A stretch of 64,000 bases of DNA, taken from the IMG/VR virus record IMGVR_UViG_3300043409_002109, positions 64,001-128,000 of that record. One strand, given 5' to 3'. Below the pieces are notes generated by a model. It had not been told where the DNA came from. It ran no database searches and saw nothing but the letters and a program-made list of their open reading frames with translations. The position numbers and the translations under genes are program-made. Below, in pieces: positions 9,919 through 54,009 of the stretch (its first letter is position 1; every line of letters begins with the position of its first letter). This DNA is from a virus.

Positions 9919-10303
9919 CGAAACTCTTGGTATCTCCCTTTTCTAATCTAGAAGCTACATAGAGATTGAACAATACGATCCAATCTCTATATGGCATAGT
10001 CACTAACATTTCTTCTCGATCATCTTTAGTAATTACTACTAAAGAACGGTCCTGTAAAGAAGTTTTAATATCATGCTTACCTTGACGTATTGCTTCTTTA
10101 ATGTTGCAACGTATCTGGCGTTTGCATTCGATATGTATGTCCTCTAACAGGGGAGAGTAGACATCGGCGTTCTCAGAGCCACCGGCACGAGCTTGACCCA
10201 GCCCTCTTTTGAAGGGAATGTTTGTGTTTTCGGTTAATAGGTTGGCCACTTCTCTTTCGAAATTATGGCCTTTTAACCTTGCTCCTTTTCCTGGGGAAGC
10301 CAT
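9869..10303 (-). CDS. Holliday junction resolvase, Hjc-like PD-(D/E)XK
   Basis: KGxxFERE...ADV...IECKR motifs. Confidence 0.8.
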   Translation of the reverse strand: MASPGKGARLKGHNFEREVANLLTENTNIPFKRGLGQARAGGSENADVYSPLLEDIHIECKRQIRCNIKEAIRQGKHDIKTSLQDRSLVVITKDDREEMLVTMPYRDWIVLFNLYVASRLEKGDTKSFDASIFTKEVSEEDHSS

Positions 10304-10956
10304 TAGAAGCCTTCTAGTTTAATCTTAGGCTTCTTCTGGTATTCGAGAATATCATCAATGATATTTAGTTCCTTCGCTTCCTTGGCGCTAAAGAATATTG
10401 AAGTCTGACCAGCAAAGTATTTTGCCCAATTGGTTTTATTCATCTTGGTTCGCTTACGAATTATCTCATTCATAGTATCAAGGCCCCAGTTGTAGCACTT
10501 AACATGAGAATCTAATTCGACTACAGAGCTTATCTGAGTTTCAGAGATAGGCTCGTGATAGAAGAGGCGGGCACTAGGGAATGCCACTCTAATGTCGCCA
10601 GCCTGCATCAGGAGGAATCCTCCTGAATAAGCCATACCTTGTACTACCGTGATGATAGGACAGTCTACGGCGCGCAAGGTGTCGTAGATAGCTAGGGTTT
10701 GGACTACATCTCCACCGGGGCTGTTTATCATAACCTTAATCGGTGCACTGTCCTCAGCTGCTAGATATTCTATCTGAGAACATATGGCAGACCCTAAGGT
10801 AGGTTCTATCTCTCCTCCGATAAGTATAGTTCTTGTATTTGCGCCGAAGCCGGCGAGAGAGTGAGGAGTCCAAGAGTTAGCAGCACTATCGTGCTCTTCG
10901 TCCTCTTCTTCGGATTCCTCCTTGATATAAAAATTGTTCATTGTATTCAGTATCAT
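10303..10956 (-). CDS. clpP: ClpP-family peptidase subunit
   Basis: INSPGG, AIYD, GMAYSGG (catalytic Ser), FYHEP (His), FSAKEA...IIDDI. Confidence 0.9.
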   Translation of the reverse strand: MILNTMNNFYIKEESEEEDEEHDSAANSWTPHSLAGFGANTRTILIGGEIEPTLGSAICSQIEYLAAEDSAPIKVMINSPGGDVVQTLAIYDTLRAVDCPIITVVQGMAYSGGFLLMQAGDIRVAFPSARLFYHEPISETQISSVVELDSHVKCYNWGLDTMNEIIRKRTKMNKTNWAKYFAGQTSIFFSAKEAKELNIIDDILEYQKKPKIKLEGF

Positions 10957-27330: not shown

Positions 27331-29493
27331 TTAACCTTTATATATGTCTATAGTATCTGCAAATATTTCAATGATTGGAGCTTCTTGAGAAACTTTACCT
27401 GAGACTTTTATTAAATCTTTTACCTCTGGTAGTGCTCGGTATTTAATAATTTGAGCATAACTTCTAGGGAATAGAATTATCTTTGCAGTTGCTGTGCCAT
27501 CGCCTATTTCTAGAATAGCCATAGGTTGGCCTTTTTTTGTTTTCATATCTCTTACTTCTATTACCATTCCGCAAACCACTGCGTTAACACCTTCAAAGAC
27601 GTTAACTAAAGCTTCTGCTTCGGAGTAGATCATTCGTGCAGGGTGTCTCCCTAAGAAGCACCCTATGTATTCTTGTTGAATCATCATTTGATGTAAGGTG
27701 ATAGGTATTTTACTATGTCTCTCTAGGGTTGGCATAGTAGGAAACTCTTTTTCTTTTAAGCTAACTTTCTTTCGAAGGTTTGAAGTTGTTTCTAAGAACT
27801 CTAACTCTTCTGCTGTAAGTTCTCTATCCTTCTTTCTTGCCTCTATCTTTTTAAGTTCAGTTCGGCGCGCGATCAAGGGCTCCAGTTCAAGATTCTCTTT
27901 TTCTCTGATTTTAATCTCTGCTTTTCTTTCATAAAATTCTTGGAGTTCTGTTTTGAAATCATAGAGTTTATGCATTTGAGCAAGTAGGTCTTGTCTGAGG
28001 TAGCCCATAGTATCGAAGGCTCCTGCATTCACTAGAGATTCAAAGACTTTGGTATTTATTTTCTGGGTATTTACTCTTTCAATGAAATCGTTAATATCTT
28101 TAAAAGGGAGTTTACCTCTAGCTGATATGATTGCTTGAGAAGCGGTCTTACCGCAAGAACGGATACCGTTCAACCCAAAATATATTTCTCCCTCGGCCAC
28201 AATATGAAAGCCAAGGTAAGATTTCTGTACTGAGGGCGGTGAGATTCTAATTCCTAATTCTCTTGCTTCAATAATATATTCAGGAGCTTTGGCGGCCCAA
28301 TCTTTAGGCATCATATCTTCTGATCTTACGCTCATTAAAGAGCAAAAGAATTCAGTAGGATAGTTCGCTTTAAAGTAGGCACAGAGGTAGGAAACGTAAC
28401 TGTAGGCTACGGCATGTGATTTGTTAAATAAATATTCTCCGCACCCAAGAATAATTGCCCAGAGATAATCTATCTGATGATCGTTGAGCCCATATCTTTG
28501 ACAACCTTTTTTAAAGGGCTCTGTTATAGTGGCGAGGTATTTGAGATCTTTCTTCCCTATCGCTCTTCTGGCTAAATCGGAATCAACTAGGTCTAGCCCT
28601 GCTATTTCTACGAACAATAGCATGAGCTGTTCTTGGTAGACCAATACATTCCTTGTGTCTTTCCAAAGGGTTTGAATCGCTTCAGGTATTTCGGGATCAG
28701 GATCATTGTTTAGATACCTATCTAGGAATCCTGCTGATGATGGCCCAGGCCGAACAAGTGATGTTATATCACTCAGCTCTCCTATACTTTTAGGCTGAGC
28801 TTGCAATGAGGCGCGTTTGATAGAAGCTGATTCTTCGAACTGGAACACTCCAGTCAAGTGACCATCAGCAAATAATTTATAAGCTTTTGGATCTCCGTCA
28901 GGAACAGTATAAATATCGTATACCTTATTGTGTCGCTCGCGTATAAGTTTCACACATCTCTTTAGGATATCTAAGTTCTTGATAACCAGGAAGTCGAATT
29001 TAATGAGACCTTGAGCTTCGGTATCTCCCATTTCAAACTGAGTTATTCTTTCATAGTCTTTATTTCTCCAGACAGGAACGTGATTCGCTATAGGAGTATT
29101 GTTTATCACCATGCCAGCCGCGTGAACCCCATAGTTAGATACCATACCTTCTAACTGGTAACAGAAATCATGCCAATCTTTATATTTGCCGATAGTGAGT
29201 TCAGGTTGCTCTGGGTAATTTTTGTCTGGATTACCTTCTATGATTTCTTTGAATGTGGCTTCTTTCCCGAATAAGGGTGGCGGTATTTTTCCCAGGATTG
29301 TTTGCATGAGACTATAATGGGTCTCTCTCTCAGCAGGGTTCTCTGGCTCGGTTAGTTTGAAGTAGCGGCGCGTTAAGCTCTTAGTCCCGAATGTTCCTTG
29401 AGTACCTATGTTAGCTACATTGTCGCGGCCCCACTCTTCTACTATCCATTCTAGGACTTTCTCTCGACCTTCTCCATCAAAGTCCATGTCAAT
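27331..29493 (-). CDS. dnaE: DNA polymerase III alpha, catalytic part, exon 2 (palm/thumb/fingers/HhH/OB)
   Basis: IDMDF, HAAG, GLIKFDFL, GVFQFE, RPGP, YQEQ, FNKSHA.AY, C-terminal OB fold. Confidence 0.93.
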   Translation of the reverse strand: MDMDFDGEGREKVLEWIVEEWGRDNVANIGTQGTFGTKSLTRRYFKLTEPENPAERETHYSLMQTILGKIPPPLFGKEATFKEIIEGNPDKNYPEQPELTIGKYKDWHDFCYQLEGMVSNYGVHAAGMVINNTPIANHVPVWRNKDYERITQFEMGDTEAQGLIKFDFLVIKNLDILKRCVKLIRERHNKVYDIYTVPDGDPKAYKLFADGHLTGVFQFEESASIKRASLQAQPKSIGELSDITSLVRPGPSSAGFLDRYLNNDPDPEIPEAIQTLWKDTRNVLVYQEQLMLLFVEIAGLDLVDSDLARRAIGKKDLKYLATITEPFKKGCQRYGLNDHQIDYLWAIILGCGEYLFNKSHAVAYSYVSYLCAYFKANYPTEFFCSLMSVRSEDMMPKDWAAKAPEYIIEARELGIRISPPSVQKSYLGFHIVAEGEIYFGLNGIRSCGKTASQAIISARGKLPFKDINDFIERVNTQKINTKVFESLVNAGAFDTMGYLRQDLLAQMHKLYDFKTELQEFYERKAEIKIREKENLELEPLIARRTELKKIEARKKDRELTAEELEFLETTSNLRKKVSLKEKEFPTMPTLERHSKIPITLHQMMIQQEYIGCFLGRHPARMIYSEAEALVNVFEGVNAVVCGMVIEVRDMKTKKGQPMAILEIGDGTATAKIILFPRSYAQIIKYRALPEVKDLIKVSGKVSQEAPIIEIFADTIDIYKG

Positions 29494-29781
29494 CGTTGTG
29501 TTTGGATAGATCGTTATTCTATCACTCTGTATATTTCTATACAGACCAGACTATATCATCACCCTTTTCAGGGTGTCACACACTTCGACCTCACTTAAGG
29601 CCTACTCCCGCTCCCGGGATAGTCGTTGAACCTTCAAGAATATTTCTATTCAAGCTCGGCTGCTGATTGCCCAATCCTGAAGATTATTACTCGGTGAGTA
29701 CTTCAGGCTCTAAGGGGTTTCCAGCAATTCGTGTAATTTTTCGAATATCCTTTTCGGATATAAGGGACTGTGCATATCGCA
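29494..29781 (-). ncRNA. Group I self-splicing intron (IA-like, 288 nt, no ORF) in dnaE
   Basis: P AAUUGCUGGAAA, Q GCAAUCAGCAG, R UUCAACGACUA, S GAUGAUAUAGUC; P3 UUACAC/GUGUGA; 5' exon ends in U with a U.G pair in P1; terminal G; splicing restores SPPD-IDMDF. Confidence 0.93.
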
Positions 29782-30033
29782 ATCCGGAGGACTTCCGCCA
29801 GTACTCTCTGATCGTTCCTTTTTTAGATCAATAGAATCTGTTAATCCGCTTGTATATAGCAATAAGCTATTGTAAGGATTAGCTTTAAAGAATTTATTTT
29901 CTTTAATGCATTTAAGGATGAATTCTAGATCACTATCTTTTGCTTTCTCTAACTCGAAAGACAAGAAATCTAAATCTACTTCATCTATTCGCTCTGTATA
30001 AAGACACTCTTTAACCTGTTGTCTTAGGTTCAT
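29782..30033 (-). CDS. dnaE: DNA polymerase III alpha, catalytic part, exon 1 (84 codons ending ...GGSPPD)
   Basis: GGAG RBS upstream; joins exon 2 in frame once the intron is removed. Confidence 0.85.
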
Positions 30034-44705: not shown

Positions 44706-44731
44706 ATGATGACGCCCAAAGGCGTCATCAT
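44706..44731 (-). terminator. Hairpin closing the Ubl operon
   Basis: ATGATGACGCC-CAAA-GGCGTCATCAT, 11 nt after the Ubl stop. Confidence 0.6.
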
Positions 44732-44742
44732 CTTGTTCTATT

Positions 44743-45003
44743 TTAGAACTTGGTACAGTAATGCAGTGCGCCTTTGACCACGCCTGTGGCGCTTACGAGG
44801 TCTCCTGCGTAAACCTGCTCACTATCCCAACGATTCTTATCTACGGTCTGGCCGTTGACAGCAATCTCGTTGTTAATGGAGCAGTCGGCATTATAAACTT
44901 CACGCGCACGGTCAAGCACACGACGAAGGGTTACTACGCTTTCACCCGGGAAATCTAGCTGCTTCTGGCCGTTGCCAGGAAGACGAAGAAATTCTACTTT
45001 CAT
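44743..45003 (-). CDS. Ubiquitin-like beta-grasp protein (ThiS/MoaD-like) with C-terminal extension
   Basis: MKVEFL..., TL..VL, IAVNG, V..GD.V.....VKG-ALHYCTKF; directly after E1. Confidence 0.8.
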   Translation of the reverse strand: MKVEFLRLPGNGQKQLDFPGESVVTLRRVLDRAREVYNADCSINNEIAVNGQTVDKNRWDSEQVYAGDLVSATGVVKGALHYCTKF

Positions 45004-45005
45004 TT

Positions 45006-45755
45006 TTAATTCTCTGATTGTTCTGTTGTTGAAGCACGACACAAAGATCGTACAGTAAGATTGGGAGCAAAGTGGAACATAGTCCTACGACGGTCTAGCA
45101 TGTTCCAAGGTTCACCAGTAGAGTCTTGAATCATTCGATCACACATCTGATGGACCAGGAAAGATACTGTGTTGAATACTAGGGTACTACATATCTTACG
45201 ATTGCATGGACCTTCTGGTGTTTCAGCATCATTCCCTAAGCTGTTAAGCCAAACGTCTACTTGCTCACTATCTAGATTATCTAGAAGATTTACTTGGCCG
45301 AAGTCAAATCCAAGCCTTGTCTCGAAAACTCCAAGAATCTGAGGATTCATCCGGAAGACTTCAGCGACTGCTCGTCTAGAGTCAAAAGAATCTGTAGCCA
45401 GAACTAAAGGTCCGCCTTCTGCAATAGTCGATTCTTTCGAAAAGAATTCTGCATGAGTAGTTACATCTATTTCTGGATTGAATCTGCGGAGTACATGTGC
45501 AAGTGCATCTACCTTTTGCAGGCCTATGTGTTCAACATCATAGGCCTGATTGGGAAGATTGTGTGGCTCGACCTGATCACGATCCCAAAGATCGAAACGA
45601 GTAAAGCCCATTCGAGCTGCTAAGAGAGCAGCATTGCTGCCAACAGCCCCACAGCCTACAACAATAACTCTGCATTCAGCTAAAGCAGGATTAAACCAAG
45701 AAGAATGTCTTTGAAAACTAACCTTCTTCTCAAATTCAACGGGCGCTTGCGTCAT
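45006..45755 (-). CDS. E1-like ThiF/MoeB adenylyltransferase
   Basis: GCGAVG, DRDQVEPHNLPNQ, KVDAL, ATDS..SR, candidate catalytic Cys in EGPCNRK. Confidence 0.92.
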   Translation of the reverse strand: MTQAPVEFEKKVSFQRHSSWFNPALAECRVIVVGCGAVGSNAALLAARMGFTRFDLWDRDQVEPHNLPNQAYDVEHIGLQKVDALAHVLRRFNPEIDVTTHAEFFSKESTIAEGGPLVLATDSFDSRRAVAEVFRMNPQILGVFETRLGFDFGQVNLLDNLDSEQVDVWLNSLGNDAETPEGPCNRKICSTLVFNTVSFLVHQMCDRMIQDSTGEPWNMLDRRRTMFHFAPNLTVRSLCRASTTEQSEN

Positions 45756-47052
45756 TTTCTTTCCTGGACTTTTTATTCTTATTCTTATTCTTATTCTCGT
45801 AAGCGTTAACGTTCTTGAGGAAAAGCTTCATCCATTCATTGTCTAGCTCTTTAGCAATTCCTGGCATTCTCTCAGAAAGTTTATAACCAAAAGCAATTTC
45901 AGCAGCAGCAACAAAGAGATCTGCACCAAAGGTGTCTTGCCCTATAGCAAGCTGTCTAAAATCTTCTCTAGCATCTTTATAAGGAGCCATAGAATCAGCG
46001 TTCACCTTAAAAGCATAGAGAGTTGGAACATCATTCTTGTCTTCTTCGAATAGAAGAGCACTCATAATTTTCCAACAGTACTTAGCTTCTAACGAGTCTG
46101 GATCCCCAAAATACTGATCCATTTCTTTCATGAACCTCGCAGTAGGAACTTCACTAGCTTGAAGTGTCTTAGCGTTTGTAATAGCTTCTGCACATTCAGA
46201 AAGAGTTGGGTAACTTGGTGCGACCCAAGAAAGAATAAATCCATCTTTAATCGAAGTGTTCTGGCCAGTCTGTTTCGTCGTAGAGTCCTGGGACTTTCCA
46301 CCAGTGTGGGTTTGCCCCTGCACAGGAAAATTTTTAGTGCCATTACTATTATTGCTACCTCCTGTATAAGCAGTAGAGGTATGAACTCTTGTCTTAATTC
46401 TTTCTTTCAGGAGGGTGTCAATTTTCGCAAAGTCGAATCCATCGGAGATATGAAAGGTGGCATTTTGTACCTCGGCCCCCAAAACCGGATCGTAAAGACG
46501 ACAAAAGTATTCATCTTTCTGATTAAGGATTACCATCATAACAGGCTGAGAAGGATTATCTTCTGTGATTTTACGAGCAATCCAATCTTTCCACTGCTCA
46601 TTATCAGTACCGCTTGGATTACAAGCCATCTGGACGTGAGAGTGACACCAGACTGCCATACGAGAACAGTCTAGGTTGAATGCTTCTAGAGCTTCATCTC
46701 TGGGGGGGATTCTATTGCCCTCTTCATCCACTGGAGGAACCAAAGTCCCTTCAGTGTTACGAACCATCAGGCCATGACGCTCGCGAAGCTCGAATGCAAG
46801 CTTCAAAAGCATGTTCCCGTCAGTCTCGACTGTTTGTCCAGTAACAGTTTGTTCTGGAATTAGAATATCAGAAATGAAATAGTGAATCATCTTATTCTTA
46901 TGATCGACTTCTCTATCTATCATATGAAACCACTGACATTCTTGTGCGTTACACTTAGCAGTTAGATACCTTGCCTGCTCTAGTGCAAATCGATCCCAGG
47001 TTATCTGGTATCGATACCGTGTACTAAGCAGTTCCGGTGTTGTTGCTTTCAT
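45736..47052 (-). CDS. JAB/MPN+ metallo-isopeptidase (DUB-like) with C-terminal extension
   Basis: N-terminal catalytic E (AQECQW) and WCHSHVQMACNPSGTD = HxH-x7-S-x2-D JAMM motif. Confidence 0.88.
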   Translation of the reverse strand: MKATTPELLSTRYRYQITWDRFALEQARYLTAKCNAQECQWFHMIDREVDHKNKMIHYFISDILIPEQTVTGQTVETDGNMLLKLAFELRERHGLMVRNTEGTLVPPVDEEGNRIPPRDEALEAFNLDCSRMAVWCHSHVQMACNPSGTDNEQWKDWIARKITEDNPSQPVMMVILNQKDEYFCRLYDPVLGAEVQNATFHISDGFDFAKIDTLLKERIKTRVHTSTAYTGGSNNSNGTKNFPVQGQTHTGGKSQDSTTKQTGQNTSIKDGFILSWVAPSYPTLSECAEAITNAKTLQASEVPTARFMKEMDQYFGDPDSLEAKYCWKIMSALLFEEDKNDVPTLYAFKVNADSMAPYKDAREDFRQLAIGQDTFGADLFVAAAEIAFGYKLSERMPGIAKELDNEWMKLFLKNVNAYENKNKNKNKKSRKENDASAR

Positions 47053-49513
47053 TATTTTCCTGTTGTTCGTTTAGAACTTTTTCAATTTTTGCAGTTTGAT
47101 TCACAAGAATACCTTCGTATTTTGTATAGCCTTTTCGAAGAATACTACCCATTCTTTTCTCTACTTCTGCATTTGCATTTTCTGGAGTTGAAACTACAGT
47201 TATAGTTTTTCCACCTGAAGAAGGAATGATCCAATTAAAGCCTTGCTTTATCATTGATCCGAATCGAATGACTACATCAGGCAAACCATCAGTATATTTT
47301 ATCTGATAGTAAAGATGATTGGTATCATTTGTACTATTAACATAATTGAAAGTTTTTTCTTCAAAAGAATAACTATGAATTAATGTTGGGATTTCAGATA
47401 CTTCTGGAAAGTAAGTGTATTCTTTTCCCCAATGATCGGCTGGATCTGCATTACTTACCCAGCTATTCAATGTTAAGAGAATCAAGTTCAAGTCTTCATT
47501 CTGAAAGCATTGCCATAATGCAGTAGTAGCTTCTCCTGCACAAACTCTAGCTGAATGAGTAAACATAGAACTAATACTTGAATAATCTATTGGATTAATT
47601 ATTAATGCAGCTGTATGTGGATGCAATTTAATTGTTCTTAATGCATTCTTATCAACATTTCTCTCTTCTGGACGAACGCCAAAGATTGTATATTTTTCCG
47701 CAGGAAATAATTCAATAGTTGGGCTATCTCCTGGAACAACCATAGAGACTTTGAAAAGGTATGGACCTCCGACTCTAGAGCCCCACTTAGTTTCCCACTC
47801 TGGGTCTCTTGCTCCTACTCTAATCTTATTAGGCCGAATTGTCCTAGCAATAACTTGATGAAGGAACCAGTTGCTGTTCAAAGAGCATTCTTTATTTTTA
47901 GAAACACTTTCAATTGCACCAGAGACTTTATTCTTATAAAGAACATCAAGAACTATCCAGTTCTGGCGTAACCAAATCTGTTGAATATTAGGTAAGGTTT
48001 CAATACCCAATTCTTTAAGAATATCATCTTGTGAAACTGCAGATTTTAGAGCTAATTCATTCAGAATATCAAAATCTTTTTTAACTTGATCTAATTTTTT
48101 CTGCTGAGCATCTAAAGTATTATTCCAATTTTTAATTTCTTGTTCTTTAGCTAAGAGTATTCTTTTTAGCTCCTTTAATTGATCTACGTTAGCCTGTCTA
48201 ATCGCAAGTATTTGATTGCGTTTAGACTGATGCTGCTTGTATATAGATTCAAATTCAAGAACATTTTTCTCTTTATTCTGGGCAGCATTTAAATTTCTTT
48301 TAAAATTTCTACCAGATTCTGTTCTTACTAGAAGTTTAGAAAAATTCATATTTTGCCAAGATTCACTTGGTAATATTTTTTTTTCTAAAAGAATATTCTC
48401 ATATTTTGACTGTATTTTTAGAGTGGAATTAATTTTTTCTAAGGTAGTATACCAAGATTTACCTAAGGTATTTATTTGATTAGGAAAAAATCTTTTAACT
48501 TCTTTATATCTCTCAACCAAAATAGGATGATTTTCTAAAGATGTTCTTTGTCTAGCTAAATCTTTGACTAAGATATCTAGAGCCTCGGTTAAAATAAGAT
48601 TTTCTTTCTTATCGAGGTCTGAATAAGAAGTATTAAAATGGATTAGCTGAGTTATAGAGACTTCTTCATAGGTCCCTGAAGAAGGATTTATTACTAAAAC
48701 GTTTCTTCGTATTGGGATGAACATACCAGGCTGATAATTTCCTAACGCTATCTTCTCGTTTGAAAATTCAACTTCATTTTTAGAATTAGACTTTACAAGT
48801 AAGACATTAGTTCTATGTGACGGGCCACAATTGTTTATTAGTTCTTTGAGATATTCTTTAGGAAGTAAACTGATAGGTCCATCTTCGTCTACCCAGCCTT
48901 GATATAACCCTATTTTTAACCTACGATTTTCAGCATTAAGATTTAAATTTTTATTATTAACTCTTTTTGTTGTCCAAGTATTAGGAAGTATGAAGCTCAT
49001 ATCTATTTGAGGTTCAACTAGATCGGGATATATCTCTTTAATAGAAGGTGGAATAAGATTATATTCATCGAATACTAAAGGAGTCACATATATTGTATCA
49101 GGATATGGCTGATAAGCAGATAGCTTTTGATCTGGATCCTTAGTATAAGATGAAATAGGATCATCTTCTTCTGACTGTTGTACTATCCAAAAGATACTTG
49201 AAGAACTTGAATTCTGCTTTAATTTTATATTCGACAACGAATATCTTGATCTTAAATATTCGAGATTATCTACTTTTGGGCTGCCACTAGGCTTTAGTAA
49301 TATATCTTCACTTAAAGATATAAATTTATTTTCACTTAGATTAAGTGTATATCTGGCAAGACTTTTAATTATTGGATCAAAGTCTTCATTAAAAGGATGT
49401 CCAGATCTTGTAGCGTTTGCCTGCAGTAAAGAAGGGAAAGCTAAAACAAATCGAGAAGAATGGAGCGGGCGGGATCCAAGACTAGGAAGCGCATGACGAG
49501 AAGTAGAATACAT
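47024..49513 (-). CDS. Large coiled-coil protein with E2/UBC-like domain and C-terminal WGR-like domain
   Basis: GGPYLFKV..P...PTI.L, LHPH, RVCAG, LNLILLTL.SW..NADP.D mirror the UBC fold; YYQI...V.IRFG...A..E..K.....KGY mirrors WGR. Confidence 0.7.
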   Translation of the reverse strand: MYSTSRHALPSLGSRPLHSSRFVLAFPSLLQANATRSGHPFNEDFDPIIKSLARYTLNLSENKFISLSEDILLKPSGSPKVDNLEYLRSRYSLSNIKLKQNSSSSSIFWIVQQSEEDDPISSYTKDPDQKLSAYQPYPDTIYVTPLVFDEYNLIPPSIKEIYPDLVEPQIDMSFILPNTWTTKRVNNKNLNLNAENRRLKIGLYQGWVDEDGPISLLPKEYLKELINNCGPSHRTNVLLVKSNSKNEVEFSNEKIALGNYQPGMFIPIRRNVLVINPSSGTYEEVSITQLIHFNTSYSDLDKKENLILTEALDILVKDLARQRTSLENHPILVERYKEVKRFFPNQINTLGKSWYTTLEKINSTLKIQSKYENILLEKKILPSESWQNMNFSKLLVRTESGRNFKRNLNAAQNKEKNVLEFESIYKQHQSKRNQILAIRQANVDQLKELKRILLAKEQEIKNWNNTLDAQQKKLDQVKKDFDILNELALKSAVSQDDILKELGIETLPNIQQIWLRQNWIVLDVLYKNKVSGAIESVSKNKECSLNSNWFLHQVIARTIRPNKIRVGARDPEWETKWGSRVGGPYLFKVSMVVPGDSPTIELFPAEKYTIFGVRPEERNVDKNALRTIKLHPHTAALIINPIDYSSISSMFTHSARVCAGEATTALWQCFQNEDLNLILLTLNSWVSNADPADHWGKEYTYFPEVSEIPTLIHSYSFEEKTFNYVNSTNDTNHLYYQIKYTDGLPDVVIRFGSMIKQGFNWIIPSSGGKTITVVSTPENANAEVEKRMGSILRKGYTKYEGILVNQTAKIEKVLNEQQENNESNNTGTA

Positions 49514-50028
49514 TATATTTCAAATCCTTTTAATATTATTTGTTCATCTATATTTTCGTCGATAGCATTAACTAAGAATTTGAATTGATTTTCACTGATC
49601 TTTACGTCAGGTAGAATCTCATAATTTTTTAGTAATAGCTGGATATTAGGTTCAAGTTCGCCTTGAGCTTTATATTTTAGTATCAATAGTGTTGGGTGAG
49701 GCCGAAGAGAGCTTAACTCTATTAAGAATTTCTTTCTTAGAGTTTCACGATGCGAAGGAGTTATATTATTTTGAAATAATATTTTAATTCTTTGATAAAA
49801 ATTCTTAGTTAATCCAGCCATAGCTTTTTTTCTTTGAGTTTCGTTCCACGTCTTTGTGGCTCTTGTGCTAGGATAATTTTTAGGTATAGAGAGAGAAAAC
49901 TTCTCCCTCTTTCCATATTTAAATTCTGGTAAAGTTTTATCTGGTATTAAATAAAAATTCTTGTAATCGTCATCCGTATTTTCAGTCGGTGTTATTGGAA
50001 CAAACTGAATCAATTGATTAAGACGCAT
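49513..50028 (-). CDS. Hypothetical protein coupled to the E2 gene
   Basis: TAATG overlap. Confidence 0.55.
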   Translation of the reverse strand: MRLNQLIQFVPITPTENTDDDYKNFYLIPDKTLPEFKYGKREKFSLSIPKNYPSTRATKTWNETQRKKAMAGLTKNFYQRIKILFQNNITPSHRETLRKKFLIELSSLRPHPTLLILKYKAQGELEPNIQLLLKNYEILPDVKISENQFKFLVNAIDENIDEQIILKGFEI

Positions 50029-50653
50029 CTTTTTCCACGGCTATAAGGGCGATGACATACAATCCAACATTGGGCGCTATGTCATCAATAAATATTTGAG
50101 GATGTTTAATCATAGGTAGTAGCTCTTTGGGTAAAACTAGACATCCTATTTCAGTTAGGATTCTTTTAGTATCTAAGAGAATATCTATGATTTTTTCAAT
50201 CTCTTCATTTTTAGATTGAAGAGTTATTTCTAACTTGTAACGAATCTTATGATATTCGATCCAGAGTTTATTAAAAGTAGATACAAGATTATATTCGTAA
50301 TCAGAGAGTAATCGAAGTACTTCTGATTGAATATGAATCTTTAGCGAGTTAAGATTAGGGATTCGATTTGTATTACGTAAACGTACTTGTACTAATCCAT
50401 TAATATAATAATTTGCTTCTATTTCAATTCCGCAACTTTTTAAGTTTATTATCTCACTAGGAGATAATCGATTATATTCATTTCTTTCTAGGAATGTTGC
50501 AGGAGATCCAGCGAATGCTAAACTTAAGCATTCTTGTGGATCCAACCTCAAAGAAATGTTGTTACTCTGGCCCTTTGTTATCAGAAGATTCGTATTTCTC
50601 ACTATCCAAGGGATAGAGTTCATTTTGAATCTCCATGATAAAAGATGGAGCAT
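50018..50653 (-). CDS. Hypothetical protein
   Basis: Packed ORF. Confidence 0.5.
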   Translation of the reverse strand: MLHLLSWRFKMNSIPWIVRNTNLLITKGQSNNISLRLDPQECLSLAFAGSPATFLERNEYNRLSPSEIINLKSCGIEIEANYYINGLVQVRLRNTNRIPNLNSLKIHIQSEVLRLLSDYEYNLVSTFNKLWIEYHKIRYKLEITLQSKNEEIEKIIDILLDTKRILTEIGCLVLPKELLPMIKHPQIFIDDIAPNVGLYVIALIAVEKDAS

Positions 50654-50804
50654 CTTTTATGTCATAGACTAATAAAGGAAAGCCACACTCTTCACACAAT
50701 AGTCTTTCTGGTAGAATTTCTAATGCTTGAGCATAACCGCAGTTATCTAGATCTATACAATAAACTTGATATAACATCTTTTGACCTAACCAGCAGGGCG
50801 GCAT
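50562..50804 (-). CDS. Small Zn-ribbon protein
   Basis: C.....C ... CEECG; start probably the internal Met. Confidence 0.45.
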   Translation of the reverse strand: MPPCWLGQKMLYQVYCIDLDNCGYAQALEILPERLLCEECGFPLLVYDIKDAPSFIMEIQNELYPLDSEKYESSDNKGPE

Positions 50805-50828
50805 AGCCGCCCAACAGAGACAAAATCT

Positions 50829-51023
50829 TTAATCTTCATAACGGGTAGGAGTATCCATCCGAAGGATGGCGCGAGTAAGATAAGTATTATTTACTCCCTC
50901 TGCTCGAAGAGCGCGTCTAGCGTTGCGTGCTTCATCACGAGTAGACCAACGGCTATGCACCTTGGTGGTACTGGTCCAGACTGTGTATATGTAGAGCGGA
51001 ATAGTGTTCATTTCGATAATCAT
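50829..51023 (-). CDS. Small basic hypothetical protein
   Basis: AAGGA RBS, followed by a hairpin. Confidence 0.5.
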   Translation of the reverse strand: MIIEMNTIPLYIYTVWTSTTKVHSRWSTRDEARNARRALRAEGVNNTYLTRAILRMDTPTRYED

Positions 51024-51031
51024 TTGTTCCT

Positions 51032-52768
51032 TTATCTACAGAAACCTATAGAAGGTTTATGTAGAATATTTTGTTTGAAAACTGTATCAATAAATTCTTT
51101 ATTGATAGTTTGATTTGTTTTTTCATAAGCGTAGATGTTTGTAGCAGCTACTCTTAAGAGTCTTCGGACGCGCTGTTCGATCTGTCGAACTTGTTTTATT
51201 TTGGCAAGCTCAGAGAAAGCTTCGTCGGTCCATTCAATTGGTAATGTTTTAATATTGTAGTCAAGAACTATCTTGGGCAGAAGATAATCATTTAAGATTT
51301 TATGACGTTCTTCATATTCATATTCTCTAAATCGAATGAACTCTAATCTGTCTTTAAGAGCTTCAGGTATTCTATCTTCATAGTTTACTGTAGCAACGAA
51401 TAGAATCTTGCTAAGATCTACCTCTAACTCTATATAGCGATCGATAAATTCTTTATTTTGAGAGTTATCTAATGCGCTTAAAAGAGCTGATGCGGCTGAA
51501 CCTCTATGAGTATCAAGTTTATCTAGTTCATCCAAGAGTATACAAGGATTCATTGATCCAGCATTGCAAAGAGCATTGATAATTCTTCCGCATTTACTAC
51601 TGATGTATGTTCTTCTGTGACCTACTATATCGGCTTCATCACCGATACCTCCTAAGCTGACGGTCTGGAAGGACCGTCCAGAAGCTTCTGCTAAGGTCCT
51701 AGCTATACTGGATTTACCTGTTCCTGGAGGTCCAGATAAGCAGATAATAGCTCCTGAACTATTACCTTTAATCTTTTCTATGCACATATGTTCAATCAGA
51801 TAATCTTTTACATCATCTAGACCATAGTGGCTTCTGTTAAGATCTTCTCTTAATGCTTTTAGAGAGAAATCTCTTTCTGAACTTTTGCCCCATGGGATTT
51901 TGAATACCCAGCTAAGATAATCTTTTAGCATAGATGCTTCGGTTGAATTTCCTGGCATCGAATCTAATCTACTTATTTCCTCAGAAATTTTTGGGCGATG
52001 CATCTCTGGGAAAGCTGTTATATCCAATCTTTCTTTATAAGAAAGATTCTTAGAAGAAGATGTATTACGCTCTTGTTTCTCTATCTTAGAATTAGTAGCA
52101 GGTGATTTCTTTTTGTGTTTTCTTTCCATAACAAGATCACTAATTTGAGTAGTGGTCATAAGCCATCTTTCTAAATTAGATTCTTCTTGAAGATACTTAA
52201 TTCTAGATTCTTTTTCAGAGAAAACATAATCTGCCATATAATCCATACGACGGAATAAGTTTACTTCTTCTGTTAAGAGATTACATAAAGTCTGTTCAAA
52301 TATATCAGAGTTTTTAGAGATGACTTTAGATAGAGCTTCAATATCTGCATAGATACCATGTTCATCATCTTCTAACTCTTCTATATAAAATTGAGTAGTA
52401 CAATAGATTCTAGAGAGTCCATCAGTATCTATATCTAAAATAACATCTTCAGTAACGAATGCGCGTCCTTCAATTTTAATTGTATATAAAGACATCTCAT
52501 CATTGATATCTTCAGGCTCTGTTATAGAGCCTAATAATCCTATGTCATATACATTATCTAGATACTCTCCAAGATCTTCCATCATTAGAGATGTGTCTCT
52601 AGTTTTGGGTATAGCAAAGAGAATGCGACGTTTAATTTGATCTCTTCCTAAAGAAAATTCTACAGGAGAAAAATACTTTAGACGTTCATTCGAAATTAAT
52701 AAGTGAATTACTTGTCCAGGGATAGGTATGTCATCATTTAATTCTAATACGTAAACGGGATAGTTCAT
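51032..52768 (-). CDS. Lon-type AAA+ ATPase lacking the protease domain (LonN + AAA), ending in IGF
   Basis: HYGL..VK, GPPGTGKS, SLGG..DE.DI.GHRRTY, LLDELDK, DR.E; stops at 578 aa with KPSIGFCR and no Lon_C. Confidence 0.9.
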   Translation of the reverse strand: MNYPVYVLELNDDIPIPGQVIHLLISNERLKYFSPVEFSLGRDQIKRRILFAIPKTRDTSLMMEDLGEYLDNVYDIGLLGSITEPEDINDEMSLYTIKIEGRAFVTEDVILDIDTDGLSRIYCTTQFYIEELEDDEHGIYADIEALSKVISKNSDIFEQTLCNLLTEEVNLFRRMDYMADYVFSEKESRIKYLQEESNLERWLMTTTQISDLVMERKHKKKSPATNSKIEKQERNTSSSKNLSYKERLDITAFPEMHRPKISEEISRLDSMPGNSTEASMLKDYLSWVFKIPWGKSSERDFSLKALREDLNRSHYGLDDVKDYLIEHMCIEKIKGNSSGAIICLSGPPGTGKSSIARTLAEASGRSFQTVSLGGIGDEADIVGHRRTYISSKCGRIINALCNAGSMNPCILLDELDKLDTHRGSAASALLSALDNSQNKEFIDRYIELEVDLSKILFVATVNYEDRIPEALKDRLEFIRFREYEYEERHKILNDYLLPKIVLDYNIKTLPIEWTDEAFSELAKIKQVRQIEQRVRRLLRVAATNIYAYEKTNQTINKEFIDTVFKQNILHKPSIGFCR

Positions 52769-53978: not shown

Positions 53979-54009
53979 TATAGAGATACTCCTAAGGAGT
54001 ATCTCTATA
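53979..54009. terminator. 14-bp triloop hairpin
   Basis: TATAGAGATACTCC-TAA-GGAGTATCTCTATA. Confidence 0.55.

Follow-up and report, generated by a model that had tools for sequence, protein, structure and literature searches.

The DNA considered here is a stretch of 64,000 nucleotides from a virus, referred to below as the window, which corresponds to positions 64,001 to 128,000 of the IMG/VR record IMGVR_UViG_3300043409_002109. The complete record has a length of 150,205 bp and is rated 100% complete. The analysis concerns a minus-strand gene of the window that encodes a protein of 578 amino acids (aa), which an earlier note, made from the letters alone, had described as a Lon-type AAA+ motor that lacks the protease domain, ends in an IGF motif and could serve as an unfoldase partner of ClpP. 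The motor gene and its parts, with the basis for each assignment, are as follows (window coordinates).

51032..52768, minus strand: protease-less LonA-type AAA+ protein (578 aa, P0001), from the open reading frame (ORF) and its translation, TIGR00763, PDB matches and Foldseek
52106..52768, minus strand: Lon N-terminal domain, consisting of a beta-rich lobe (residues 1-124) and a helical region (residues 138-221), from the AlphaFold2 secondary structure and Foldseek
51080..51871, minus strand: AAA+ module (residues 300-563) with sensor and arginine-finger residues, from PF00004
51710-51733, minus strand: Walker A motif GPPGTGKS (residues 346-353), from the translation
51605-51622, minus strand: pore-loop region GHRRTY (residues 383-388), from the translation
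51521-51538, minus strand: Walker B motif LLDELD (residues 411-416), from the translation
51035..51079, minus strand: flexible C-terminal tail (residues 564-578), with a predicted local distance difference test (pLDDT) score of 51-67 and no secondary structure
51041-51049, minus strand: codons of the IGF motif, from the translation

The Lon N-terminal domain and the complete set of AAA+ motifs that had been read from the translation were borne out by the positions of the motifs, the AlphaFold2 fold, the Foldseek results and the PDB matches. The PDB sequences closest to the motor were those of Bacillus subtilis LonA and human LONP1, with E values of 1e-71 to 1e-57. The AlphaFold2 model, for which 17 relatives were used as input, has a mean pLDDT of 83 and a disordered linker at residues 221-241, and the top structures found with Foldseek for this model are full-length LonA chains, aligned over approximately 600 columns with the N-domain included. 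PF02190 was recorded on the motor relatives P0011, P0014 and P0021. In Pfam, a single AAA domain was found on the motor (PF00004, E 2e-20); the sequence KDRLE is located at residues 472-476. The ATPase residues (Walker A and B, the pore-loop region, the sensors and the arginine finger) are invariant across the 17-member alignment A1.

The NCBIfam equivalog model for lon, TIGR00763, matched the motor with an E value of 2.4e-100. The match is confined to positions 254-573 of the 795 in the model, and the whole-protein score of 337 bits is below the cut-off of 608. The confinement of the match and the low score indicate that the protease part is absent from the motor. Moreover, no match to PF05362 (Lon_C) at E<=1 was found across the whole 150,205-bp genome, whereas the control genomes were matched in 14 of 14 cases. 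It is therefore confirmed that the 578-aa protein is a complete Lon motor without the Ser-Lys protease domain, in agreement with the earlier description of a missing protease domain and a missing Lon_C gene.

The motor was compared with LonA, as represented by Escherichia coli Lon, B. subtilis LonA (PDB 3m6a) and human LONP1 (TIGR00763; MEROPS S16). Both have a substrate-binding domain at the N-terminus, a long stretch of helices and an AAA+ module of the Lon type that includes the GHRRTY region, with 35-41% identity over the AAA+ part. Unlike LonA, the phage motor, and with it the whole phage genome, has no Ser-Lys protease domain, and the phage protein breaks off after the first three to five residues of the would-be first strand of Lon_C, a segment that now reads as an invariant [IVL]GF. 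Since the protein fails the defining feature of LonA, it should not be filed as an endopeptidase La.

The ORF translation ends in ...KPSIGFCR, as had been reported, and G575 and F576 are invariant in alignment A1. A wider set of 64 sequences was collected by three criteria, namely the presence of the Walker A pattern, the absence of the Lon_C catalytic motif and a length of 480-660 aa. Five of these were set aside: they come from ordinary Lon, are cut short and still extend into the protease domain. In all of the remaining 59 protease-less members, the pattern [IVLMF]-G-[FY] is located within the last 14 residues, and the motif is kept even between members that share 30-35% identity. Conservation among homologues, which had been named beforehand as a test of the proposal, thus extends to 59 of 59 members, down to about 30% identity. 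The same motif occurred in 0.75% of shuffled tails, and its presence is not due to chance. The first position of the motif is I in 38 members, V in 14 and L in 5; the third position is F in 57 and Y in 2.

The linker that precedes the motif differs in length and sequence between the members, yet it is basic, with K or R at positions -3 and -2 in 46-51% of the family tails versus a background of 13%. The IGF loops of the ClpX genes located beside bacterial lon genes in the fetched loci read RR.G[RK][QK]G[VI]GF, and the basic flanks of the phage tail form a similar context. Between the motif and the C-terminus, 0-8 residues follow in the 59 members; because such trailing residues are tolerated, the motif is probably read as an internal peptide, in the manner of the ClpX loops, and not as a free C-terminus. 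In the alignment with canonical LonA, the IGF motif coincides with k[IV]G[VM], where the first strand of Lon_C begins (...[IV]G[VM]VxGLAWT...), which shows that the gene was truncated just inside the protease domain. The three leftover residues have been held invariant since then, with the third changed to Phe. In LonA structures, the junction between the AAA+ module and the protease domain leads to the exit face; by homology with this junction, the tail would be positioned at the face where substrates leave the ring. An invariant tripeptide that is carried by a flexible tether of variable sequence, and is predicted to lie where an intact translocase releases its substrates, has the look of a docking peptide.

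A loss of function following the truncation was also considered, with the gene as a decaying remnant of lon. The protein does stop at a domain boundary, with a tail that corresponds by homology to the beginning of Lon_C. On the other hand, dozens of clusters of uniform length (510-660 aa) with invariant ATPase residues and an invariant terminal motif are not what decay would leave behind. A relative in which the gene is interrupted by an HNH endonuclease also keeps both motor halves open and conserved, and we give the decay explanation almost no credence. This relative is located at L063 9251-11892, in a 192.5-kb IMG/VR record (G002). The homologous motor gene is split there at the pore loop into a 376-aa ORF that ends in ...AEFRG and a 198-aa ORF that starts with MHRRTY... 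and ends in ...RKIIGFRK, with the gene of the 246-aa HNH endonuclease between them. P0006, P0007 and P0192 look like similar motor halves.

The family was assembled from two very large protein collections. It consists of protease-less proteins of approximately 510-660 aa with 30-72% full-length identity, which form dozens of 50%-identity clusters of uniform length. In the phage database INPHARED, neither a family member nor a DNA match was found. When one genome per bacterial species was scanned, 79 ordinary bacterial lon loci came up, together with one contig of a metagenome-assembled genome, which proved to be the phage gene P0014; the Lon_C catalytic motif was recognised by a regular expression in 55 of the 79 loci, and the others read as full-length or cut Lon. 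This bacterial scan therefore gave no bacterial family member and no clue to the host. Scans with the family-specific sub-alignment A2 and with the alignment A4 of the JAB-like proteins encoded near the motor returned loci of one syntenic lineage only. The motor gene belongs to the core gene set of a single lineage of uncultured marine phages. In the full-text literature, no description of a protease-less Lon with such a docking tail was found.

A second group of protease-less Lon-like proteins, of approximately 680-830 aa, was observed in giant-virus contigs (L008-L023 and L026; IMG/VR, many from GVMAG bins). These proteins match TIGR00763 over model positions ~10-612 of 795, without Lon_C, and nearly all of them end in a hydrophobic residue followed by Tyr or Phe and one further residue (…AMYC, …GMYN, …SMYV, …HLYL, …SMFI), an ending similar to the HbYX tail by which proteasomal ATPases attach to the 20S proteasome. 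In the phylogenetic tree, built without two phage rows and one Lon row that the Walker A cutting pattern did not match, the giant-virus group and the phage group are each monophyletic, the former on a long branch. The split that joins the two groups has a support of only 62/87, and the protease domain may have been lost either once or twice.

ClpX, ClpA and ClpC insert an [LIV]-G-[FL] tripeptide into hydrophobic clefts on the ClpP ring. The phage motor resembles these proteins as an AAA+ translocase that has no peptidase of its own and carries [LIV]-G-[FL] on a flexible basic segment; its hexamer and its docking are predicted. It differs from them by belonging to the Lon AAA+ clade and not to the ClpX or ClpA lineage, by carrying the motif on a C-terminal tail and not, as they do, in a loop that belongs to the large AAA+ subdomain, and by having neither a zinc-binding domain nor a Clp N-domain. 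The predicted design is also that of PAN, Rpt, Mpa and Cdc48, in which the C-terminal tail of the AAA+ lid bears a docking peptide (HbYX or GQYL) that fits pockets of a separate peptidase ring. In contrast to these, the phage motif is a different one, it tolerates trailing residues so that a free carboxylate is not required, and its presumed receptor is ClpP and not the 20S proteasome.

On these grounds, we favour docking of the tail on canonical ClpP, which would be the ClpP of the host in the case of the source phage and a phage-borne copy in one related clade; we rate the chances of this proposal as about even. The motor would be an active hexameric unfoldase derived from LonA, in which the protease ring has been replaced by a docking tail. 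Substrates would be selected by the Lon N-domain and then translocated by the AAA+ ring. The flexible basic tails would leave the ring at the place where the Lon protease domain once began, and their [IVL]-G-F would insert into the hydrophobic clefts of the ClpP ring. The unfolded chains would thus be handed to canonical ClpP, supplied by the host here and by the phage's own canonical clpP in the related clade.

The ClpP-family gene of the window is located approximately 40 kb from the motor.

10303..10956, minus strand: divergent ClpP-like serine peptidase of 217 aa, from PF00574 (108 bits, cut-off 20.2)

It is the sole PF00574 gene in the genome, and the earlier assignment to the ClpP family holds. 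As a regular ClpP it does not hold, for the protein is divergent, its catalytic Asp is lost and its pocket is altered. The NCBIfam ClpP models gave 79-102 bits against cut-offs of 228-309. An alignment with ClpPs of known structure shows that the protein keeps the catalytic Ser (GMAYSGG) and His (FYHEP) and has Ser at the position of the Asp; throughout the divergent subfamily this position is Ser or Thr. The equivalents of the residues that line the IGF cleft are E, Y, K, M, A, V, Q, V and F, at positions that we take to correspond to L48, F49, Y60, Y62, F82, I90, M92, F112 and L114 of E. coli ClpP, and these positions vary within the subfamily (alignment A3). Ten relatives of the divergent subfamily all have an N-terminal W-x-P motif, and none of them has the catalytic Asp. 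The members of alignment A3 also display an acidic N-terminal extension, an invariant W-x-P...G...R and a lysine-rich C-terminus.

This protein could itself be the receptor of the tail, which would give an all-phage protease made of the Lon motor and the ClpP-like protein. The divergent gene is present in the source genome and in most of the related records, and its product retains the Ser and the His together with the ClpP fold signature over its full length. It is better described by the ClpP models than by the ClpP-related head-maturation model (102 versus 60 bits, with a cut-off of 120 for the latter). The gene lies at the far end of the non-structural arm, at approximately 60 kb from the terminase, an unusual place for a head-maturation protease that speaks mildly against such a role. 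Nevertheless, the best PHROG matches of the protein are head-maturation protease families, the catalytic Asp is lost, 40 kb separate the gene from the motor, and the divergent type could not be shown in the clade that has canonical ClpP. Moreover, the pocket equivalents are changed and variable in the subfamily while the IGF of the motor is invariant. We therefore regard an all-phage protease of this kind as improbable. The pocket of canonical ClpP is conserved across bacteria, and the combination of an invariant IGF with a variable pocket in the phage ClpP-like subfamily points to that conserved canonical pocket. A complex prediction, in which three ClpP-like copies and residues 484-578 of the motor were supplied as alignments, gave a score of 0.00; it was run without controls and counts neither way.

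Docking on canonical ClpP can also be considered in the light of three relatives, L053, L055 and L061, whose motors are 33-37% identical to that of the source phage. In these loci, a ClpP gene is located 4.5-10 kb upstream of the motor gene on the same strand, among thyX and ssb, and no other AAA+ gene was called within the 21-kb loci. According to the alignment, the ClpPs of L053 and L055 are canonical, in that they have the axial-loop N-terminus, all three residues of the Ser-His-Asp triad and an unaltered pocket; this typing covers these two loci, as the locus of L061 contains just a cut piece of its ClpP gene. The copy of the L055 ClpP in the IMG/VR record G006, from the same phage, scored 266 bits. 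A PF00574 gene was found in 8 of the 9 IMG/VR records that hold the family, the exception being a fragment rated 29% complete, and no related record with a completeness of 79% or more lacks a ClpP-family gene. The possibility, raised earlier, that homologues might be common in genomes devoid of ClpP or ubiquitin-like protein (Ubl) genes was thus not observed among the related records, which represent one lineage only. In the source genome, neither Lon_C nor a ClpX-type AAA_2 gene nor SspB was found.

It is important to mention several points that weigh against docking on canonical ClpP. The IGF motif and the opening residues of the lost protease domain are homologous, and the presence of the motif is therefore partly a matter of ancestry, which nonetheless leaves its invariance unexplained. 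The docking itself is predicted, and a ClpP in the host of the phage is an assumption. The source phage and most of its relatives carry only the divergent ClpP-like gene. Viral ClpP genes of the canonical kind, related to that of L055, are also found in phage records that gave no match to the motor family, including a complete genome of 524 kb. Finally, all loci of the family belong to a single syntenic phage lineage, so that co-occurrence with ClpP or with the Ubl operon described below is not independent evidence and carries little weight.

Downstream of the motor, on the same strand, the following genes were identified.

49513..51023, minus strand: four genes (64, 80, 211 and 171 aa) between the motor and the Ubl operon, from the ORFs
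44743..49513, minus strand: Ubl operon, on the same strand as the motor
47024-49513, minus strand: E2-like protein of 829 aa, the name E2 being taken over from the earlier note
45736-47052, minus strand: JAB-like protein of 438 aa, with a weak Prok-JAB match
45006-45755, minus strand: ThiF/E1 (ThiF, E 8e-25)
44743-45042, minus strand: candidate Ubl

The E2-like gene is thus indeed located 1.5 kb downstream of the motor on the same strand, as had been stated. The 211-aa and 171-aa intervening proteins have no Pfam or NCBIfam match; together with the 64-aa protein, they are also conserved in the relative L051. The alignment A4 holds an invariant HSH...S..D block. At every readable locus of the family the gene order is the same, with the motor followed by 1.5-5 kb of variable small genes and then by an E2-like gene (730-940 aa), and at the family loci the order continues with JAB-like, ThiF/E1, a protein of 71-86 aa, PhoH, Whirly and SpoVG. 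When viral contigs were scanned with the JAB protein, the only loci found were those that also carry the motor upstream. In a consensus scan, no minus-strand terminator-like site was scored between the motor and the E2-like gene. The sole site of this kind on the minus strand, at 44923-44900, is inside the candidate Ubl gene; for two palindromic hairpins, at 53979-54009 and 44706-44731, the scan gave scores on the plus strand. The motor may be co-transcribed with the Ubl operon.

In many distant relatives, the variable slot contains a Gad2-like gene together with a Trypsin_2 gene in the opposite orientation. A gene of the Gad2 family (PF26128), which is named after an anti-Gabija protein, is located directly downstream of the motor in L053 (12687-13772), L055 (11718-12596), L061 (11770-12663) and L076 (8540-9385). 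The Trypsin_2 gene of the source genome is located elsewhere, at genome positions 140508-140924. The Trypsin_2 protease was considered as a partner that binds the motor through a C-terminal peptide, which is unlikely, given its length of 211-253 aa, the absence of a recorded PDZ family and a motif that is often not terminal.

The tight and universal linkage of the motor to the E2-like/JAB/E1 block, and the absence of a scored minus-strand terminator-like site in between, would also suit a motor that works without any peptidase, as an independent remodeller or a Cdc48-like segregase, for example on Ubl conjugates. The tail would then serve the stability of the hexamer or bind some other phage partner. 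The protease ring of Lon contributes to the assembly of the hexamer, and a truncated Lon consequently needs compensation for its loss; classical AAA+ motors, moreover, often act without a peptidase. A segregase, however, leaves the exact ClpP-docking tripeptide with its basic flanks unexplained. The tail is unstructured and unpacked on the monomer in the AlphaFold2 model, and no partner candidate conserved across the family lies directly beside the motor, because the intervening genes differ. This alternative deserves consideration, even though we judge it rather unlikely.

The earlier note had proposed a hybrid protease of Lon motor and ClpP that acts on Ubl-tagged substrates. The motor, the IGF motif and the adjacency of the genes are supported by the present analysis; a link to Ubl-tagged substrates beyond this adjacency is not. 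A self-contained phage system for tagging and degradation can nevertheless be envisaged, in which the E2-like, JAB, E1 and Ubl proteins would mark the targets, the Lon N-domain would read the tag and the IGF motif would couple the motor to ClpP, with swappable docking tails as a general feature. The targets could be host defence or phage proteins. We consider this extended proposal doubtful, with a low probability of being correct.

The sole other AAA protein of the source genome is encoded just past the window.

L166 1213-2133 (genome 128.8-129.7 kb), minus strand: second AAA+ protein of 306 aa, a classical AAA ATPase of the PAN/FtsH/Cdc48-like clade, with a poly-Glu tail and the end LIIGMKK

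This protein was rejected as a candidate partner of ClpP, since its close homologues have acidic tails without the motif. P0319-P0343, a group of metagenomic proteins of approximately 335 aa, are small classical AAA ATPases distantly related to it. At or close to their C-termini they carry K-[LIVFY]-G-F (…SKLGF, …KKIGFSN, …TNIGF), which indicates that a C-terminal [LIV]GF recurs on stand-alone AAA motors. In another part of the window, a match to the group I intron family RF00028 of Rfam was observed at 29527-29852 on the minus strand (86.8 bits, E 9.5e-21), directly upstream of a DnaE-like ORF of 718 aa (27331-29487); the intron may be involved in a split DnaE. Beside this site, a 4-kb stretch (30-34 kb) has a G+C content of 51-55%, compared with approximately 40% for the genome.

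To our knowledge, all established partners of ClpP belong to the Clp/Hsp100 lineage (ClpX, ClpA, ClpC and their relatives), and Lon is the textbook example of a motor fused to its own protease. If the tail of the phage motor docks on ClpP, AAA+ motors and peptidase chambers would be recombinable in nature, the motor family would represent a new class of ClpP activator, and phages would have gained a direct route to redirect the proteolysis of their hosts. The fixed place of the motor upstream of a phage Ubl operon makes it directly testable whether Ubl tags of the bacterial world feed a protease. If tagging and degradation are indeed combined in these phages, Lon and ClpP parts would together make up a viral counterpart, in the bacterial world, of the ubiquitin-proteasome system. 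Taken together with the tails of the giant-virus proteins, swappable docking tails on viral Lon motors would then be a general strategy to hijack the peptidases of the host.

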